Positions 636 through 4,959 of a stretch of DNA of 9,508 bases are shown here, piece by piece. The stretch lies in contig DAOOON010000023.1 of assembly GCA_035387745.1 (NCBI GenBank), positions 1 to 9,508 of the forward strand, in the 5' to 3' direction. The DNA comes from an archaeon (lineage in GTDB: Archaea; Iainarchaeota; Iainarchaeia; Iainarchaeales; CSSED10-239). A model generated the notes under the pieces. It did no database searches, had not been told where the DNA came from, and saw only the letters and a program-made list of their open reading frames with translations. Positions within the stretch are counted from its first letter, which is position 1, and every line of letters starts with the position of its first letter. The position numbers were made by a program, and so were the translations under genes.

Positions 636-1940
636 ATGGAAAAAAAATATTTAAGTGTTAAAGGGGTTTTAGAAAGTAAAACAGAAGATATATCTATTCG
701 AGGATGGGTATATAGAATTAGAGATCAAAAAGATAATATCTTTGTAACAATTAGAGATGAAACCGGAATTATACAGCTTGTTGCTTCAAAAGACAAGTTA
801 AAACCAGAAGAGTTTCAAACAGCAAAAGCATTAGGAATAGAATCTTCAATAATAGTTCATGGAAAACTAAGAAAAGAAGAAAGGTCTCCTCAAGGTTATG
901 AAGTTGATATTGATTCAATAGAGCTTGTTGGAAAATCAGAGAACTATCCAATCTCTAAAGACTTCTCTGAGGAGTTTCTTCTAGATGTTAGACATCTCTG
1001 GCTTAGAAGTAGAAAAATGACAAGCATCCTAAAGATAAGATCAACAGTAATTGGAGCGATTCATGAATATTTTAGAAAAGAAGGATTCTATGAATATCAA
1101 TCACCAATACTTCAATCAGTCCAATGCGAAGGAGGTTCTTCTCTTTTTAAAGTTGATTACTTTGGAGAAGAAGGAGTTTTCTTAGCTCAGACCTGGCAAC
1201 TATATGCTGAGCCAGCAATCTTTTCTTTAGGAAAGATTTATACCATTGCTCCATCTTTTAGAGCAGAGAAATCAAAGACCTCAAGACACCTTACAGAATA
1301 CTGGCATGCAGAGATGGAAGGGGTTTGGATTGATTTTGAAATGCTTCAAGATTATGGTGAAGGGCTAATCAAACATGTAATCAAAACAGTACTTTCAAAA
1401 CATAAAGAAGATCTTGATATCCTTAAAAGAGACACAAAGTTATTAGAAACAGCAATCTCTAAACCATTCATAAGAATGACATATACTGAAGTTCTAAAAC
1501 TTCTTAAAGAAAAAGCAGATATGGAAGTTGAATGGGGAAAAGATCTAAGAACAATTGAGGAAGACAAGTTAAGTAAAATGCACGATACCTTTACAATAGT
1601 TACAAGATATCCAAAAGTTGTTAAGGCCTTTTACATGAAAGAAGACCCAAAAGACTCAAGTGTCGTTCTTGGCTTTGATTGTATTGGCCCAGAAGGTTAT
1701 GGAGAAATTATTGGTGCAAGTGAAAGAGAGCCAGACTTAGAAAAGATAAAGCAAAGATTACTAGATGATGGCGAAGACCCAAAGCATTATGAGTTTTATC
1801 TAGACACTAGAAGATATGGTTCAGTTCCACATGCAGGCTTTGGTTTAGGTGTTGAAAGATTAATTGCATACATTACTGGTGTTGACAACATAAAAGACAC
1901 AATACCATTTCCAAGAACTATGGTTCGTTTCAAACCGTAG
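636..1940 (+). CDS. asnS: Asparaginyl-tRNA synthetase (class IIb, short archaeal-type, 434 aa)
   Basis: An N-terminal OB-fold-like segment (IRGWVYRIRDQKDNIFVTIRDETG) is present. Class II motif 2 reads FRAEKSKTSRHLTEYWHAEME. Motif 3 and the C-terminus read GSVPHAGFGLGVERLIAYITGVDNIKDTIPFPRT. The PH(A/S)GFGLG and FPRT signatures match AsnRS rather than archaeal AspRS (PHGGxGLG), as I recall them. Confidence 0.88.
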   Translation: MEKKYLSVKGVLESKTEDISIRGWVYRIRDQKDNIFVTIRDETGIIQLVASKDKLKPEEFQTAKALGIESSIIVHGKLRKEERSPQGYEVDIDSIELVGKSENYPISKDFSEEFLLDVRHLWLRSRKMTSILKIRSTVIGAIHEYFRKEGFYEYQSPILQSVQCEGGSSLFKVDYFGEEGVFLAQTWQLYAEPAIFSLGKIYTIAPSFRAEKSKTSRHLTEYWHAEMEGVWIDFEMLQDYGEGLIKHVIKTVLSKHKEDLDILKRDTKLLETAISKPFIRMTYTEVLKLLKEKADMEVEWGKDLRTIEEDKLSKMHDTFTIVTRYPKVVKAFYMKEDPKDSSVVLGFDCIGPEGYGEIIGASEREPDLEKIKQRLLDDGEDPKHYEFYLDTRRYGSVPHAGFGLGVERLIAYITGVDNIKDTIPFPRTMVRFKP

Positions 1941-1950
1941 ATAAAAATAT

Positions 1951-2069
1951 AATTGGTTCGCGTTGATAATCGTGCATAAGCACGAAATCCATTGCGCACG
2001 AATCCATAAAAACCATTTGGTTTTTAGGGCACCAGAAAATATATTTTCTGGGTGCGAGCGAAACCGATT
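1951..2069 (+). ncRNA. Candidate structured RNA or tRNA-Asn leader/promoter element (unclassified)
   Basis: This is the most GC-rich non-coding stretch in the window. A closing helix pairs 1951-1961 with 2058-2069 (11 bp, one G.U, bulged A2061). Hairpin A is 1970-1975/1980-1985 with loop ataa. A near-tandem repeat gcacgaaatccat (1980-1992) and gcacgaatccat (1996-2007) follows. Hairpin B is 2008-2014/2019-2025. Hairpin C is 2029-2039/2044-2055 (11 bp, bulged G2050). The element ends 2 nt before the tRNA 5' end. Confidence 0.3.
2029..2055 (+). promoter_or_regulatory. Putative tRNA-Asn promoter: palindromic TATA-like core flanked by GC-rich inverted arms
   Basis: The sequence is ggcaccag-aaaatatatttt-ctgggtgc. 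The AT core is centred near 2041-2042, about 26-30 nt upstream of the tRNA 5' end at 2072. That is the usual archaeal spacing from TATA box to start site with a very short leader. Confidence 0.4.
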
Positions 2070-2071
2070 CT

Positions 2072-2144
2072 GCCTCAGTAGCTCAGTGGTTGGAGCAATC
2101 GACTGTTAATCGATAGGTCGTAGGTTCAAATCCTACCTGGGGCG
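2072..2144 (+). tRNA. tRNA-Asn (anticodon GTT), 73 nt, no encoded CCA, no intron
   Basis: Manual cloverleaf. Acceptor stem is gcctcag (2072-2078) with ctggggc (2137-2143), one U.G, and discriminator G2144. The D arm is gctc/gagc. The anticodon stem is atcga (2098-2102) with tcgat (2110-2114), and the loop is ctGTTaa with anticodon at 2105-2107. The variable loop is aggtc. The T arm is gtagg-ttcaaat-cctac (2120-2136). Confidence 0.93.
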
Positions 2145-2166
2145 TTTAAAAGGAGATGAATAACTT

Positions 2167-2193
2167 ATGAAAAAGTATCTACCCAACATATAA
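2167..2193 (+). promoter_or_regulatory. 8-codon upstream ORF (MKKYLPNI-stop) with a strong SD, ending 7 nt before the asnA TTG start
   Basis: aaaaggagatgaa (2148-2160) is identical to the SD context of the ORF at 74, with the same 15-nt GGAG-to-ATG spacing. The ATG is at 2167 and the TAA at 2191-2193. Codon 7 is AAC (Asn). The reading frame differs from that of asnA. Confidence 0.35.
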
Positions 2194-2200
2194 ATCGAAA

Positions 2201-3190
2201 TTGGATTATTTTCAAACACAAGAAGCAATTCAATTTATAAAAACTGATTTTGAAAAAAACTTATCAAAAAAACTAAACCTTTTGCGTGTAAGCGCACCGA
2301 AATTTTTAATTGCAAACACTGGGCTGCTTGATGATCTTGCGGGAACTCAAAAACCTGTTTCTTTTAAAGTTAAATTTTTAAAAGAAGATATAGAAATTGT
2401 ACATTCTCTTGCAAAATGGAAAAGATTAATACTTGGAGAATTTAAATTTCCAATAGGTGTGGGACTATATACAGATATGGACGCCATAAGAAAAGATGAA
2501 GATGTTGATTCCACACATAGTGTTTATGTTGATCAATGGGACTGGGAAAAAGTAATTACAAAAGAACAAAGAAATATAAAATTCTTAAAAAAAATAGTAA
2601 AACAAATTTATTCAAGCATGTATAAAACAAAATTAAAGTTAAATAAAAAATATAAACAATTAGAATATACAATTCCAAAAGATATACATTTTATACATTC
2701 AGTAGATTTACAAAAGTTATATCCGAAACTAACCCCAAAAGAAAGAGAAGACAAGATTACAGAACAACATGGTGCAGTTTTTATTATTGGTATTGGTGCA
2801 GATTTATCTGACAATAAGCCACACGATATAAGAGCAACTGACTATGATGATTGGTCAACAATAGAAAACGGAAAACCAGGATTAAACGGAGACATTTTAG
2901 TTTGGGATAAAGTTAGTGGTAAAGCATTAGAGTTATCCTCTATGGGAATAAGAGTTGATAAAGATGCATTATTGTTTCAACTAAAAGAAAAGAATGAAAT
3001 ACACAAGTTGAAATTGGATTATCACAAAAAGATTATTTCAAATAAAATCCCTCTTTCAATTGGTGGTGGTATCGGGCAATCAAGACTTTCTATGTTTATA
3101 TTAGAGAAAGCACACATTGGAGAAGTTCAATCCTGTGTTTGGCCTAAAGGCTTAATAACTAAATTTAAAAATAAAGGGGTTATTTTATAA
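2201..3190 (+). CDS. asnA: Aspartate-ammonia ligase (asparagine synthetase A, AsnA type), 329 aa, TTG start
   Basis: Collinear with E. coli AsnA as I remember it. Shared motifs are VHSLAKWKR, HSVYVDQWDWE, IHFIHS, GAVFIIGIG, HDIRATDYDDWST, GLNGDILVW, ELSSMGIRVD, IGGGIGQSRL and HIGEVQ..VWP. The first canonical start in frame is TTG at 2201. Starting there, the N-terminus (MDYFQTQEAIQFIK) aligns with E. coli residues about 3-16. Confidence 0.9.
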   Translation: MDYFQTQEAIQFIKTDFEKNLSKKLNLLRVSAPKFLIANTGLLDDLAGTQKPVSFKVKFLKEDIEIVHSLAKWKRLILGEFKFPIGVGLYTDMDAIRKDEDVDSTHSVYVDQWDWEKVITKEQRNIKFLKKIVKQIYSSMYKTKLKLNKKYKQLEYTIPKDIHFIHSVDLQKLYPKLTPKEREDKITEQHGAVFIIGIGADLSDNKPHDIRATDYDDWSTIENGKPGLNGDILVWDKVSGKALELSSMGIRVDKDALLFQLKEKNEIHKLKLDYHKKIISNKIPLSIGGGIGQSRLSMFILEKAHIGEVQSCVWPKGLITKFKNKGVIL

Positions 3191-4099: not shown

Positions 4100-4600
4100 A
4101 TGGTTAAACTAAAAGCAGTAGTTGATTCTTCATTTTGGATTAATCTTAATAAAACAGATTTAGTCAAATATTTATTTGATTATTTCGATTTGTATTTTAC
4201 AGAGAAAGTAGAAGATGAGCTTTATGATTATAAAGACACAAGAGCAAGTGTTCCAAAAGATCTAGATTCTTTTATACAATTAAAAAAATTAGATTTTGTA
4301 CAAGTAAAAAACCCTAAAACCGTTTCAAAAAAACTTTTTGATACTCTTTCCAACTACTCCGGAGAAATATATACAATAGCATTAGCCGAAGAATTGAATG
4401 CAATAGTTTTAACAGACGATTCTGGGCCATTAAAATATTGTAATAGGTACGGAATTATATCAATAACAACTCCCACATTTATTTTAAAACTTTTTAAAGA
4501 TAGAATAATTACAAAAGAAATAGCAAAGCAGAAGATTAATTTGATAAAGAAAAGCATAAGAAAAGAAATAATAGGAGAGGCATTAAAACAATTAAAATAG
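4100..4600 (+). CDS. PIN-domain protein (DUF3368/COG2405-like), putative toxin ribonuclease, 166 aa
   Basis: Acidic residues sit in a PIN-like pattern: D9 (VVDSSFW), E38-D39-E40 (VEDEL), E89 (SGEIYTIALAEE) and D106-D107 (VLTDD). The C-terminal helical segment (YGIISITTPTFILKLFKDRIIT) is typical of the DUF3368 type, as I recall it. A UPF0175-like partner is adjacent. Confidence 0.72.
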   Translation: MVKLKAVVDSSFWINLNKTDLVKYLFDYFDLYFTEKVEDELYDYKDTRASVPKDLDSFIQLKKLDFVQVKNPKTVSKKLFDTLSNYSGEIYTIALAEELNAIVLTDDSGPLKYCNRYGIISITTPTFILKLFKDRIITKEIAKQKINLIKKSIRKEIIGEALKQLK

Positions 4601-4608
4601 GTGAAAAA

Positions 4609-4959
4609 ATGAAAAAATATAATGTTAAGAAAGTAAAATCTTTTAGATTATCAGATAATGCATTAGCATCTATAAGCTATATTTCAAAAGCAGAAAACAT
4701 TAATGAATCAGAAGTGACAAGGATTGTTATTGATAAAGGAATTAAAGAATATCTTTTTGAATCAGCAGTTAACGAATACAATACAAAGAAGATCTGTTTA
4801 AGTGAAGCAGCAAAGATTGCAGGACTTTCAAAAAGAGACTTTATGAAAGAACTAGAAAAAAGAGGAATTCCATTAAATATGGATCTGGAAGATTTTAGAT
4901 ATTCATTTGAAAGTATGGAAAGGATATTAAAAAAAATTGATGGAAAAAGTAAGAAATAA
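4609..4959 (+). CDS. Putative antitoxin: UPF0175/COG2886-like HTH domain with an N-terminal ribbon-helix-helix-like segment, 116 aa
   Basis: The C-terminal half (LSEAAKIAGLSKRDFMKELEKRGIPLNMDLEDF) matches the UPF0175 pattern of an HTH followed by GIP. Residues about 9-47 (VKSFRLSDNALASISYISKAENINESEVTRIVIDKGIKEY) have a CopG/RHH-like strand-helix-helix pattern. SD ggtga (4600-4604) overlaps the PIN stop codon. Confidence 0.68.
   Translation: MKKYNVKKVKSFRLSDNALASISYISKAENINESEVTRIVIDKGIKEYLFESAVNEYNTKKICLSEAAKIAGLSKRDFMKELEKRGIPLNMDLEDFRYSFESMERILKKIDGKSKK

Follow-up and report, generated by a model that had tools for sequence, protein, structure and literature searches.

A strain-variable hairpin module between asnS and tRNA-Asn in an archaeal genome: a candidate dispensable structured spacer

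Intergenic, imperfect, GC-containing palindromes that lie 3' of genes, occur in either orientation and vary between strains are represented by the REP/BIME sequences of enterobacteria and by the Correia elements. Correia elements of Neisseria have long and short forms, distinguished by an internal block of about 50 bp. The ends are GTAG for REP, and terminal inverted repeats with a TA duplication for Correia. REP and MITE families reach tens to hundreds of copies per genome and have a known or suspected mobilising enzyme, and hairpins of the REP/BIME type can stabilise the 3' end of an upstream mRNA. The GC clusters of yeast mitochondria are strain-polymorphic, occur in either orientation and are often found beside tRNA genes; they are multi-copy and clearly mobile, and belong to an organelle genome. 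These clusters (PMC4478555) are short GC-rich palindromic modules in extremely AT-rich spacers. The element reported here resembles REP/BIME and Correia sequences in lying just 3' of a gene, in occurring in either orientation, in varying between strains and in having long and short forms. A literature search returned no description of such an element.

The element occupies the spacer between asnS and tRNA-Asn (Table 1) in the window, by which we mean the whole 9508-base stretch of DNA that was analysed; AsnRS homologues of 97-60% identity are found in DPANN archaea. The minimum-free-energy RNA fold of positions 1941-2070 (+) has an energy of -43.9 kcal/mol, compared to -24.6 +/- 3.4 kcal/mol for dinucleotide shuffles (z = -5.7). 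None of 200 shuffles matched this energy, and the segment ranks first in fold stability among 130-nt segments across all 9508 bases (mean -18.1, sd 6.3). The minus strand of the same segment folds almost equally well (z = -5.2), as palindromes would be expected to. The proposal of the sequence-only reading that this is an unusually stable, structured element was therefore upheld by the shuffles, and all of the helices it described were located where it had placed them: a closing helix (1951-1961/2058-2069), hairpin A, hairpin B (about 2007-2026, with one predicted G-U pair in the window fold) and hairpin C (2032-2051). A further inner helix joins CGCAC at 1995-1999 to GUGCG at 2052-2056. Palindromes B (2007-2026, UAAAAACC AUUU GGUUUUUA) and C (20 nt, 2032-2051, CCAGAAAATATATTTTCTGG) are both perfect. 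The near-tandem repeat GCACGAAATCCAT / GCACGAATCCAT was found at 1980-1992 / 1996-2007, as was the duplicate of tggttcg at 1921-1927, which corresponds to the asnS codons Met-Val-Arg. The closing helix does end 2 nt before the mature tRNA, stopping at 2069 with tRNA-Asn beginning at G2072 (by Rfam, and in all relatives; ARAGORN places the 5' end one base earlier, at 2071). The description of the spacer as GC-rich stands only in part: its GC content of 0.38, against 0.12-0.25 in the ten other spacers of the window, makes it GC-enriched, not GC-rich in the strict sense.

Table 1. Features of the asnS/tRNA-Asn/asnA locus, in window coordinates
Feature	Position	Strand	Evidence or remark
asnS, asparaginyl-tRNA synthetase, 434 aa	636..1940	+	Pfam tRNA-synt_2 and anticodon OB domain; stop TAG at 1938-1940
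AT-rich box GTAGATAAAAATATAATT, overlapping the asnS stop codon	1938..1954	+	Putative BRE/TATA-type promoter for the element and tRNA-Asn
5' arm AAUUGGUUCGCGUUGAUAA, 5' strand of the closing helix; outside the conserved core	1951..1969	+	Pairs with 2058-2069 in the window fold
Hairpin A (P1), UCGUGC / GCACGA, loop AUAA; conserved core helix	1970..1985	+	Compensatory changes
Linker AAUCCAUUGCGCAC, with conserved block UUGCGCAC (1992-1999)	1986..1999	+	UGCGC invariant in 7/7 alleles
P2 5' strand, GAAUC	2000..2004	+	Pairs with 2066-2070; covariation
Lineage-specific insertion in the P2 loop, palindromes B and C	2005..2057	+	Missing from direct short alleles
P2-loop motif GCGAAAC	2058..2064	+	Same in 7/7 element-bearing alleles, both orientations
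P2 3' strand, GAUUC, followed by U2071 at -1	2066..2070	+	P2 covariation
tRNA-Asn (GUU), CCA end unencoded	2072..2144	+	Rfam RF00005, 74 bits; ARAGORN
asnA, aspartate-ammonia ligase	2156..3190	+	Pfam AsnA, E = 5e-97; best solved-structure match 9v83_A

Membership of an Rfam 15 family is judged by a covariance-model score at or near the gathering score of that family. At gathering and at E <= 10, only tRNA passed in the window, in the short direct allele L001 and in the inverted allele L167. Models overlapping 1941-2070 scored 13-18 bits against thresholds of 31-50 (E = 1.8-6.7), in agreement with the earlier impression, by eye, that no recognisable family is represented; the families so covered include 5S rRNA, SRP RNA, RNase P RNA, C/D and H/ACA sRNAs, ribozymes, riboswitches and the T-box. 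A C/D box sRNA was rejected, as box C (RUGAUGA) and box D (CUGA), which such RNAs carry near their ends, are missing from both strands of 1941-2070, and Rfam snoRNA matches reached 16 bits against thresholds of 50. Inspection by eye showed that the defining motifs of the hammerhead ribozyme (CUGAUGA...GAAA), of a bulge-helix-bulge splice site at the leader/tRNA junction, of a split or degenerate tRNA, of integron attC core sites and of archaeal dif are missing, and that the TAGCGA of CS-6 from plasmid single-strand origins occurs only in the b-type P2 loop. Elsewhere in the window, no sequence able to pair with the element in the manner of an rRNA-processing stem was found. Downstream, tRNA-Asn and asnA are probably co-transcribed, since there is no oligo-T between them. 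The start region of asnA is unusual and is conserved in five assemblies; reassignment of TGA as an explanation was ruled out, because TGA serves as the asnS stop codon in L166 and L167.

Strains with AsnRS 92-97% identical yielded nine distinct alleles of the spacer. The element is present in direct form in the window allele (131 nt) and in four others (about 80 nt), is reverse-complemented in L166 and L167 (57 and 113 nt, respectively), and is absent from the remaining two (L161/162 and L197/198), where the spacer is T-rich and 33-39 nt long. On the inverted alleles L166 and L167, a covariance model of the core (model R1) scored 73 and 48 bits on the minus strand, and 16 bits or nothing on the plus strand. 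The strand is thus not fixed, nor is presence stable across the clade. Internal blocks of about 50 nt distinguish long forms from short ones; the insertion at 2005..2057 is absent from the direct short alleles (L001, L002, L163-165 and L169). Hairpin B was found in the window allele only, and the sole homologue of hairpin C is in L167 (CAGAAAC AAA GUUUCUG), without the TATA-like centre. Despite their inversion, L166 and L167 retain UGCGCACGAAU, GCGAAACCGAU and both hairpins, and hairpin A lies 6 nt from the tRNA gene. In every direct allele (5/5), P2 ends at -2 and a U occupies -1 relative to the tRNA. The empty alleles have T8/T5/T4 or T6/T6/T4 runs in place of the element, and hold about 22 nt of T-rich sequence that is missing from filled alleles. 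The element-less L161 keeps asnA, and L167 has the element without asnA. The neighbourhood is variable in relatives, where genes of mobile elements (Bro-N, ORF6N) and further arrays of palindromes occur.

The conserved core of the element is hairpin A, the linker block UUGCGCAC and P2 with its loop GCGAAAC. P2 is a fifth helix, overlooked by the sequence-only reading, and it is the best-supported helix of the locus. Compensatory changes were found in 8 of the 12 core pairs, 96% of core cells are paired compared to 25-39% in slid controls (which contained 0-1 compensatory pairs), and none of 500 shuffles reached the observed covariation score; these figures come from only seven alleles, and from a structure derived from these same sequences. 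DNA-level template switching could imitate the signal. Four of six pairs are compensatory in hairpin A (UCGUGC/GCACGA, UUGCAG/CUGCAA, UUGCAG/CUGCGA and UCGCAG/CUGCGA), which encloses a near-invariant AUAA(A) loop, and four of six in P2 (GAAUC/GAUUC, CAGCCU/AGGCUG and UAGCCU/AGGCUA). Both wobble pairs in the core alignment (L169, L167) are G-U on the '+' strand of the window. P2 pairing holds as its loop grows from 8 nt to 61 nt in the window or about 60 nt in L167, which is consistent with a folded single strand and not with a double-stranded protein-binding site. The core stems change more quickly than the unpaired positions while their pairing is kept, and unpaired core columns are 69-97% identical compared to 66-78% for four-fold sites of asnS, being better conserved in most allele pairs. 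Hairpin A and P2 have two stem types each, and every one of the four possible combinations is represented.

Outside the core, the helices did not fare as well. Compensatory change upholds hairpin A of the original fold, but the closing helix lacks its 5' strand in both inverted alleles (L166 and L167), and in the five direct alleles 7 of its 11 pairs are invariant, two are broken in 4/5 and its covariation does not exceed that of shuffles. The closing helix and P2 compete with each other, and in L001 and L002 the 5' arm has the linker as its pairing partner instead. The alternative pairing of the cgtgc strand with the second repeat copy, which had suggested mutually exclusive structures, failed because that copy is missing from L001, L169 and L166. 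Nor could we retain the idea of a discrete, conserved RNA of about 120 nt, as the element is 57, 80, 113 or 131 nt long, or absent, and lies on either strand. A leader acting as a riboswitch or attenuator, such as one that senses tRNA-Asn in the manner of a T-box and controls tRNA-Asn and asnA through mutually exclusive folds, would suit a locus that joins AsnRS, tRNA-Asn and asparagine synthetase, particularly given the Asn codon AAC within the invariant loop and the two pairing partners open to the 5' arm of direct alleles, namely the linker or the loop plus 3' strand of P2, in competition with P2. Yet the alternative pairing is not kept between alleles, the closing helix lacks covariation throughout and its 5' strand in inverted alleles, and no T-box or other riboswitch matched at E <= 10. 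Some close strains that retain asnA (L161 is one) have the element flipped or lack it, and it is present in strains without asnA (such as L167). A leader of this type is expected 5' of the gene it regulates; the element lies 3' of asnS, and the tRNA stands between it and asnA. Comparative data have already largely refuted this reading, which we regard as very improbable indeed.

The mark of an archaeal BRE/TATA promoter is an AT-rich TATA box whose centre lies about 26-27 nt 5' of the start, at a position conserved in homologues. It had been suggested that hairpin C, with its AT-rich centre TATATTTT (2040-2047, or -32..-25 from the tRNA 5' end), is the promoter of the tRNA. More generally, the element could be a DNA-level part of the tRNA-Asn promoter, in which an AT-rich segment about 25-36 nt upstream serves as the TATA box (hairpin C in the window, the linker between hairpin A and P2 in other alleles) and the GC palindromes clamp or regulate it. 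An AT-rich 8-9-mer is indeed found near -25 to -36 in most alleles: besides TATATTTT in the window, there are plausible boxes in three others, AAATATATT at -36..-28 in L163, GTAGTTTT at -32..-25 in L166, and ATAGATTT at -32..-25 in L167, the last of which has AATAGATTTC in common with the promoter box of tRNA-Ile in that genome. Inversion also leaves the linker at about the same distance from the tRNA. However, the segments of L001 and L169 (AAAACCCAUU / AAAACCAUU) make poor TATA boxes when the clear promoters of the genome read TTTAAATA, and at -32..-25 both alleles have CCAUUGCG, without an AT-rich TATA box. Hairpin C itself is at the right distance in this window only; its homologue in L167, with the loop CAAAG, does not resemble a TATA box and is some 60 nt away from the tRNA, on the opposite strand. 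The P2 arms stand 8 to about 60 nt apart, a range that a dimeric operator could not accommodate and that points to a folded single strand, which requires transcription from upstream of P2; operator half-sites would moreover keep their sequence, without covariation. We consider a promoter role improbable, although hairpin C may play one in this single allele.

The reading that we prefer, tentatively and at rather less than an even chance, is that the element is a dispensable structured spacer, which would share a transcript with tRNA-Asn and be removed by an RNase P cut one nucleotide past P2. That it is shortened, flipped or missing in close relatives suggests a dispensable hairpin spacer, and neither a riboswitch nor a stand-alone RNA gene under conservation. 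The AT-rich box at the asnS stop codon persists in every direct and every empty allele (as CCTTAAATAAAG in L001 and CCTTAGAAGATAAAGA in L161) and is similar to the box upstream of tRNA-Ile in relatives (aaCCTTTAAATAgatttc), a likeness on which we base its status as a putative promoter. Transcription from it would start about 25 nt downstream, around 1965, so that the RNA would have hairpin A at its 5' end. The element and tRNA-Asn would be transcribed together, either from this TATA-like box or by read-through from asnS, and RNase P would then cleave after U2071, one nucleotide 3' of P2. Cleavage would free the tRNA and leave an upstream RNA (a free leader or the asnS 3' UTR) ending in GC-rich hairpins. 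We propose that the hairpins would act by folding, both preventing the spacer from interfering with folding of the tRNA and capping the new 3' end against 3'-to-5' decay. In alleles without the element, the asnS transcript appears to end at the T-rich tract instead. A role based on folding would explain the tolerance of inversion, of gain and loss of internal hairpins, and of complete absence; the co-transcription, the RNase P cleavage and the capping role are each put forward here as predictions.

Several observations stand against a dispensable hairpin spacer. If the element had an RNA role that depends on its sequence on the asnS/tRNA strand, that role could not be identical in the two orientations, and a model in which any hairpin will do does not explain the invariant loop and linker sequences. 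The four combinations of hairpin A and P2 stems are easier to explain by recombination or repeated insertion. Close strains lack any element (L161, L197), and the putative promoter box is missing from the inverted alleles. The first oligo-T 3' of the asnS stop is the T5 at 2021-2025, with which the window-specific hairpin B ends, and this could terminate asnS read-through in this allele.

The unpaired motifs of the core could alternatively belong to a small regulatory RNA of about 55-105 nt, stand-alone or derived from a leader, with its 3' end set by RNase P and with UUGCGCAC and GCGAAAC pairing with targets in trans. These motifs are conserved between terminal hairpins able to stabilise a freed leader, a TATA-like box lies about 25 nt 5' of hairpin A in direct alleles, and a function independent of the orientation of its neighbours would suit an autonomous gene. 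In inverted alleles, though, hairpin A is so close to the tRNA gene, at 6 nt, that a promoter cannot fit. The element is also missing from close strains and is restricted to a very narrow clade, and no target complementarity was found within the window. Such an RNA is quite improbable.

The main rival to the structured spacer is a small non-autonomous palindromic mobile element, similar to REP/BIME sequences, MITEs or yeast GC clusters, that occupies a harmless site 5' of a tRNA and has no host function. Hairpins and unpaired motifs would then be recognised by a mobilising enzyme, for example as single-stranded DNA by transposases of the IS200/IS605 type. Presence, absence and both orientations among similarly diverged strains are consistent with mobility, as are the internal blocks of about 50 nt that separate long from short forms, GC enrichment within an AT-rich genome, short conserved motifs combined with fast-changing stems, and all four combinations of stem types. 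The spot is variable, with Bro-N and ORF6N genes and palindrome arrays in relatives, and template switching can yield compensatory changes in DNA palindromes without selection on RNA.

Other observations speak against mobility. Model R1 recovered only the training alleles from 99 sources, which amount to 648 kb of asnS neighbourhoods from DPANN archaea and cover, for each of several close relatives, about 20 kb at this one locus; within that sequence a single site is known, and exact and degenerate motif searches of the collected loci gave no further copy. No distant homologue was found 3' of asnS in 160 genome and metagenome loci, among which the asnS/tRNA-Asn arrangement itself is confined to the closest relatives and to L006 and L032, whose spacers are plain and short. 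Viral contigs and plasmids hold nothing comparable: scans of viral contigs with the 5' half of the tRNA gave no match, those with TGCGCACGAAT...GCGAAAC gave 19 matches, all by chance in phage contigs of higher GC (0.41-0.69), no AsnRS relative was found in viral contigs, and a plasmid collection contained no match. There are no terminal inverted repeats common to all alleles and no target-site duplication (the window arms AATTGGTTCGC / GCGAAACCGATT were not found in short or inverted alleles), and no transposase gene lies nearby. The 'empty' alleles do not show a clean excision site but have a T-rich sequence of their own. Finally, an inactive, fixed copy should drift neutrally, whereas the loops and linker mostly exceed the conservation of synonymous sites. 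On balance, we judge a mobile element to be somewhat unlikely.

It is also conceivable, although unlikely, that the core is a previously undescribed archaeal element specific to the tRNA-Asn 5' flank: either a small mobile hairpin homing, in either orientation, to a 'safe harbour' 5' of a tRNA gene, or a means of RNase P-dependent mRNA 3'-end formation, in which a module of hairpins would stand in for the oligo-T terminator that asnS usually has. Behaviour of either kind, if true, would be new for DPANN archaea. If functional, the element would be among the few structured cis-elements described in these organisms, and would exemplify a co-transcript of mRNA and tRNA in which RNase P sets the upstream 3' end and hairpins cap it. 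If it is mobile, archaea would have in it a very small element with the flank of a tRNA gene as its target. Either way, hairpin modules are quickly gained, lost and flipped in a reduced, AT-rich genome, and the locus carries the caution that a striking single-sequence fold (z = -5.7) can be mostly lineage-specific.

Compared to known systems, the element is unlike REP/BIME and Correia sequences in having one known site, no common terminal repeats or duplication, no nearby transposase and an archaeal host, and it has no sequence similarity to the yeast GC clusters. It shares with archaeal BRE/TATA tRNA promoters, including those of the leaderless tRNAs of Nanoarchaeum equitans, the presence of TATATTTT at -32..-25 in the window. 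The leaderless tRNAs of N. equitans have promoters at a fixed distance. Here, by contrast, the L167 hairpin is neither AT-rich at its centre nor at that distance, other alleles are GC-rich at -25..-32, and the helices behave as folded single strands. T-box and other leaders linked to aminoacyl-tRNA synthetases are likewise structured RNAs at a synthetase and amino-acid biosynthesis locus, with possible competing helices; the element differs in lying 3' of asnS, in lacking Stem I, a specifier and T-box sequence, and in being archaeal, invertible and dispensable. The last comparison concerns mechanism only, and is with MALAT1 and MEN-beta with mascRNA. These are eukaryotic, protection is by a triple helix, and the downstream fold is a tRNA mimic and not, as here, a real tRNA. 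As at this locus, a stable structure nevertheless lies directly 5' of a tRNA or tRNA-like fold, and RNase P, by cutting just past that structure, gives the upstream RNA its 3' end, as we propose for the asnS/tRNA-Asn spacer.

The spacer between asnS and tRNA-Asn is a real, unclassified structured element confined to a narrow clade. All helices listed in the sequence-only reading were found where it had placed them, and the RNA fold of positions 1941-2070 reached -43.9 kcal/mol, against -24.6 +/- 3.4 for dinucleotide-shuffled controls (z = -5.7), ranking first in stability among the 130-nt segments of the entire window. The minus-strand fold was almost equally stable (z = -5.2). The GC enrichment was likewise borne out (0.38 versus 0.12-0.25 in all other window spacers), and an Rfam search of the window matched tRNA only, even at E <= 10, in keeping with the earlier failure to recognize a known family. 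The element is more ordinary than its single-sequence fold suggests: two conserved hairpins form a small core, the palindromic additions to it are lineage-specific, and the element as a whole is dispensable and invertible.

Coordinates of the locus and of the parts of the element, with the spacer states seen among relatives (L numbers are related loci fetched via AsnRS)
Feature	Window position	Length	Detail
asnS	636-1940		first in local order
Element	1941-2071		between asnS and tRNA-Asn
tRNA-Asn(GUU)	2072-2144		after element
asnA	about 2156-3190		after tRNA-Asn
Hairpin A	1970-1985		core helix; loop AUAA
Core linker			ends in UUGCGCAC (1992-1999)
P2	2000-2004 with 2066-2070		loop always includes GCGAAAC (2058-2064)
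Palindrome B	2007-2026		
Palindrome C	2032-2051		CCAGAAAATATATTTTCTGG
Short stem beside B and C	1995-1999/2052-2056		
Empty, T-rich spacer		33-39 nt	L161/162, L197/198
Direct short spacer		about 80 nt	L001, L002, L163-165, L169/170
Direct long spacer		131 nt	window only
Inverted short spacer		57 nt	L166
Inverted long spacer		113 nt	L167/168

The host is an AT-rich (30% GC) DPANN archaeon near Iainarchaeota/Diapherotrites MAGs; the window codes for archaeal Kae1, PTH2, CysRS and AsnRS, and the best relatives of the last are labelled 'archaeon', 'Candidatus ainarchaeum' and 'Diapherotrites'. At 4100-4959, a PIN-domain ORF (PIN_5, weak Pfam match; DUF3368 in relatives) precedes a UPF0175 ORF; the pair resembles a toxin-antitoxin module and is not present in L161, L163 or L171.

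Alleles were compared with AsnRS as the anchor: genome and metagenome collections supplied 160 loci, and contigs belonging to twelve close AsnRS clusters were fetched in addition. Among the 160 loci, the asnS/tRNA-Asn arrangement was limited to the closest relatives (AsnRS 92-97% identical), which are by no means near-clones, since their asnS genes agree at only 0.66-0.78 of four-fold degenerate sites. The spacer occurs in five states, and L171-L176 have no tRNA-Asn at all downstream of asnS. Inversion of the element in some alleles is unambiguous: R1, the covariance model built on the conserved core, gave L166 73 bits on its minus strand and 16 bits on its plus strand, and blocks such as TGCGCACGAATC and GCGAAACCGAT match the window exactly once reverse-complemented. 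The tRNA-Asn of empty allele L161 (after 6305) shows about seven differences from the window's in its 5' two-thirds (GCCCTAGTAGCTTAGCTGG...) and matches it in its 3' third, while the tRNA of empty allele L197 has the window's sequence, a pattern that suggests patchy recombination spanning the spacer-tRNA boundary. In L169 (11389-11470) and L170, tRNA-Asn carries additional T residues (GCTTTTGTGGTTTGG, GTCGAAAGGTTTC) and is not called by ARAGORN; either the gene is damaged or the assembly contains a homopolymer error.

With all alleles placed in one orientation, the core consists of hairpin A, a linker and P2, which the sequence-only reading missed because the P2 loop is widened to 61 nt in the window. 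Hairpin A occurs as UCGUGC/GCACGA, UUGCAG/CUGCAA, UUGCAG/CUGCGA and UCGCAG/CUGCGA, and P2 as GAAUC/GAUUC, CAGCCU/AGGCUG and UAGCCU/AGGCUA. Covariation across homologous spacers, sought as a mark of a functional RNA, was found in these two helices (compensatory changes in 8 of 12 pairs) but not in the proposed closing helix. Core helices were paired in 96% of cells, versus 25-39% with the partner slid, and none of 500 shuffles reached the covariation score, a result obtained from seven alleles with a structure derived from those very sequences. Stem positions are 33-88% identical between alleles, pairing nonetheless being kept; unpaired core positions are 69-97% identical, exceeding asnS synonymous sites (0.66-0.78) in most allele pairs. 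As read from these seven alleles and the structure they supplied, the pattern is the one expected of a single strand that folds and has sequence-specific loops. Template switching at DNA palindromes can likewise yield 'compensatory' changes.

The closing helix (1951-1961/2058-2069) is present in the window's minimum-energy fold but shows neither conservation nor covariation in relatives. Because the invariant GCGAAAC motif, C2065 and most of the P2 3' strand together make up its 3' strand, the helix competes with P2. Across the five direct alleles, 82% of cells are able to pair, 7 of 11 pairs are invariant, two pairs fail to form in four alleles, and covariation stays at the level expected from shuffling. 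The 5' strand is wholly missing in inverted alleles, and for L001, L002 and L169 the predicted partner of the 5' arm is the linker. A leader-derived or stand-alone small RNA is, in our judgement, quite unlikely. A riboswitch or attenuator is scarcely credible: the switch pairing of cgtgc with the second GCACGAA copy is impossible in L001, L169 and L166, the tggttcg copy inside asnS exists but is nothing beyond Met-Val-Arg codons, and no riboswitch-like feature is kept among alleles.

Positions 2005-2057 are a 53 nt insertion in the P2 loop that holds two perfect palindromes, B and C. Inverted long allele L167 has a homologue of hairpin C (CAGAAAC-AAA-GUUUCUG), none of B, and another extra hairpin instead (AAAUCGC-UAAU-GCGAUUU); hairpin modules therefore come and go within the P2 loop. 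A palindromic mobile element, similar to REP, MITE or GC-cluster sequences, is the main rival explanation, although a doubtful one. It would account for presence and absence, both orientations, long and short forms, conserved motifs beside variable stems, and the finding that the stem types of hairpin A and P2 are combined in all four ways. However, all copies found sit at one site, with no further copy in the 648 kb searched with the core covariance model; they have no terminal repeats in common, no target duplication and no transposase gene close by, and empty alleles hold different sequence rather than a clean empty site.

The region 3' of asnS (window 1941-3190 compared with L161, L163, L167, L169, L171-L176 and L197; AsnRS 85-97% identical) is a gene-content hot spot with four arrangements: tRNA-Asn with asnA, tRNA-Asn alone, a SAM-methyltransferase gene without tRNA, or unrelated small ORFs. 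In relatives, the stretch upstream of asnS carries Bro-N or ORF6N genes, which are characteristic of mobile elements. L161 carries at 2915-3125, upstream of a Bro-N gene, six short palindromes in a row (GAGTTG-[5-7 bp stem]-AATTT-[stem]-CAGCTG, stem sequences differing); this array also lies in the variable region, and its sequence is not related to that of the element. Relatives further have isolated GC-containing hairpins within AT-rich spacers (L169 18960-19020, L167 18470-18580), such as GUGCAC-UGAAA-GUGCAC followed by GAAAAAGCC, and UAGCCGC-UUCG-GCGGCUA; they resemble hairpin A in style and are not picked up by R1.

Clear promoters of the lineage resemble aaCCTTTAAATAga, for example upstream of tRNA-Ile in L167, L169 and L171. 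Direct and empty alleles have a comparable box across the asnS stop codon (L001, CCTTAAATAAAG; window, CCGTAGATAAAAATATAA). Empty allele L161 has it at about -31..-24 relative to the tRNA, and direct alleles have it 80-130 nt upstream. Transcription starting about 25 nt past this box would begin shortly ahead of hairpin A, and the core would then be a 5' leader of pre-tRNA-Asn. The centre of hairpin C (TATATTTT) lies at -32..-25 from the tRNA, which would allow the window allele a second, proximal promoter. The distance in the window fits the suggestion that hairpin C is the tRNA promoter, but the L167 homologue argues against a conserved role of this kind: it lies on the opposite strand, at a distance of about 60 nt from the tRNA, and its centre is not AT-rich. 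In short and inverted alleles, the linker at -36..-25 is moderately AT-rich, but reads AAAACCCAUU in L001. We consider a promoter or operator role at the DNA level unlikely; the strongest argument against a purely DNA-level role is that the P2 arms stay complementary while their spacing goes from 8 to about 60 nt.

The start of asnA (2150-2203) is odd, with the same layout in five independent assemblies, including L161, L002, L163 and L169. A Shine-Dalgarno-like AAGGAG precedes a tiny ORF, ATGAATAACTTATGA (M-N-N-L-stop, 2156-2170), with two Asn codons, whose stop codon is overlapped by a second small ORF (MKKYLPNI-stop, ATG 2167 to TAA 2193). AsnA is read in the frame of the first small ORF, and its coding sequence extends 5' of the annotated TTG 2201. 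KSIYPTYKSKLD can be aligned to residues 5-15 of AsnA structure 9v83_A; a Ser codon shows synonymous variation (TCG/TCA/TCT), and L002 has TTA in place of TTG. AsnA therefore seems to depend on read-through of the TGA, a +1 shift following ATG 2167, or a start at the non-AUG codon ATC 2177. One possible reading is a leader peptide for asparagine synthetase that senses Asn.

We tentatively favour the view that the element serves the tRNA-Asn transcription unit as a structured spacer that can be dispensed with. Its transcription would be driven by the box overlapping the asnS stop codon, by read-through from asnS, or by both. No oligo-T directly follows the asnS stop codon; the window's T5 (2021-2025) sits in window-specific hairpin B, filled alleles otherwise have at most T4, and empty alleles have T8/T5/T4 or T6/T6/T4 runs. 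RNase P cleavage after U2071 would part the element from the tRNA; in every direct allele P2 ends at -2, with U at -1. The upstream remainder would end in GC-rich hairpins, shielding it from 3'-to-5' decay, and the hairpins may also stop the spacer disturbing tRNA folding. We propose that the element tolerates inversion because hairpins arise in both orientations. The structured-spacer reading accounts poorly for loop and linker conservation in both orientations.

Among known systems, the element fails the defining tests of T-box leaders and C/D sRNAs and gives a mixed match to MITE criteria. In behaviour it is most like REP/BIME and Correia-type palindromic elements and yeast mitochondrial GC clusters, and the mechanism proposed here would be analogous to MALAT1/mascRNA, in which an RNase P-defined 3' end is capped by upstream structure. 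We file it with intergenic hairpin/palindromic elements and structured tRNA leaders.
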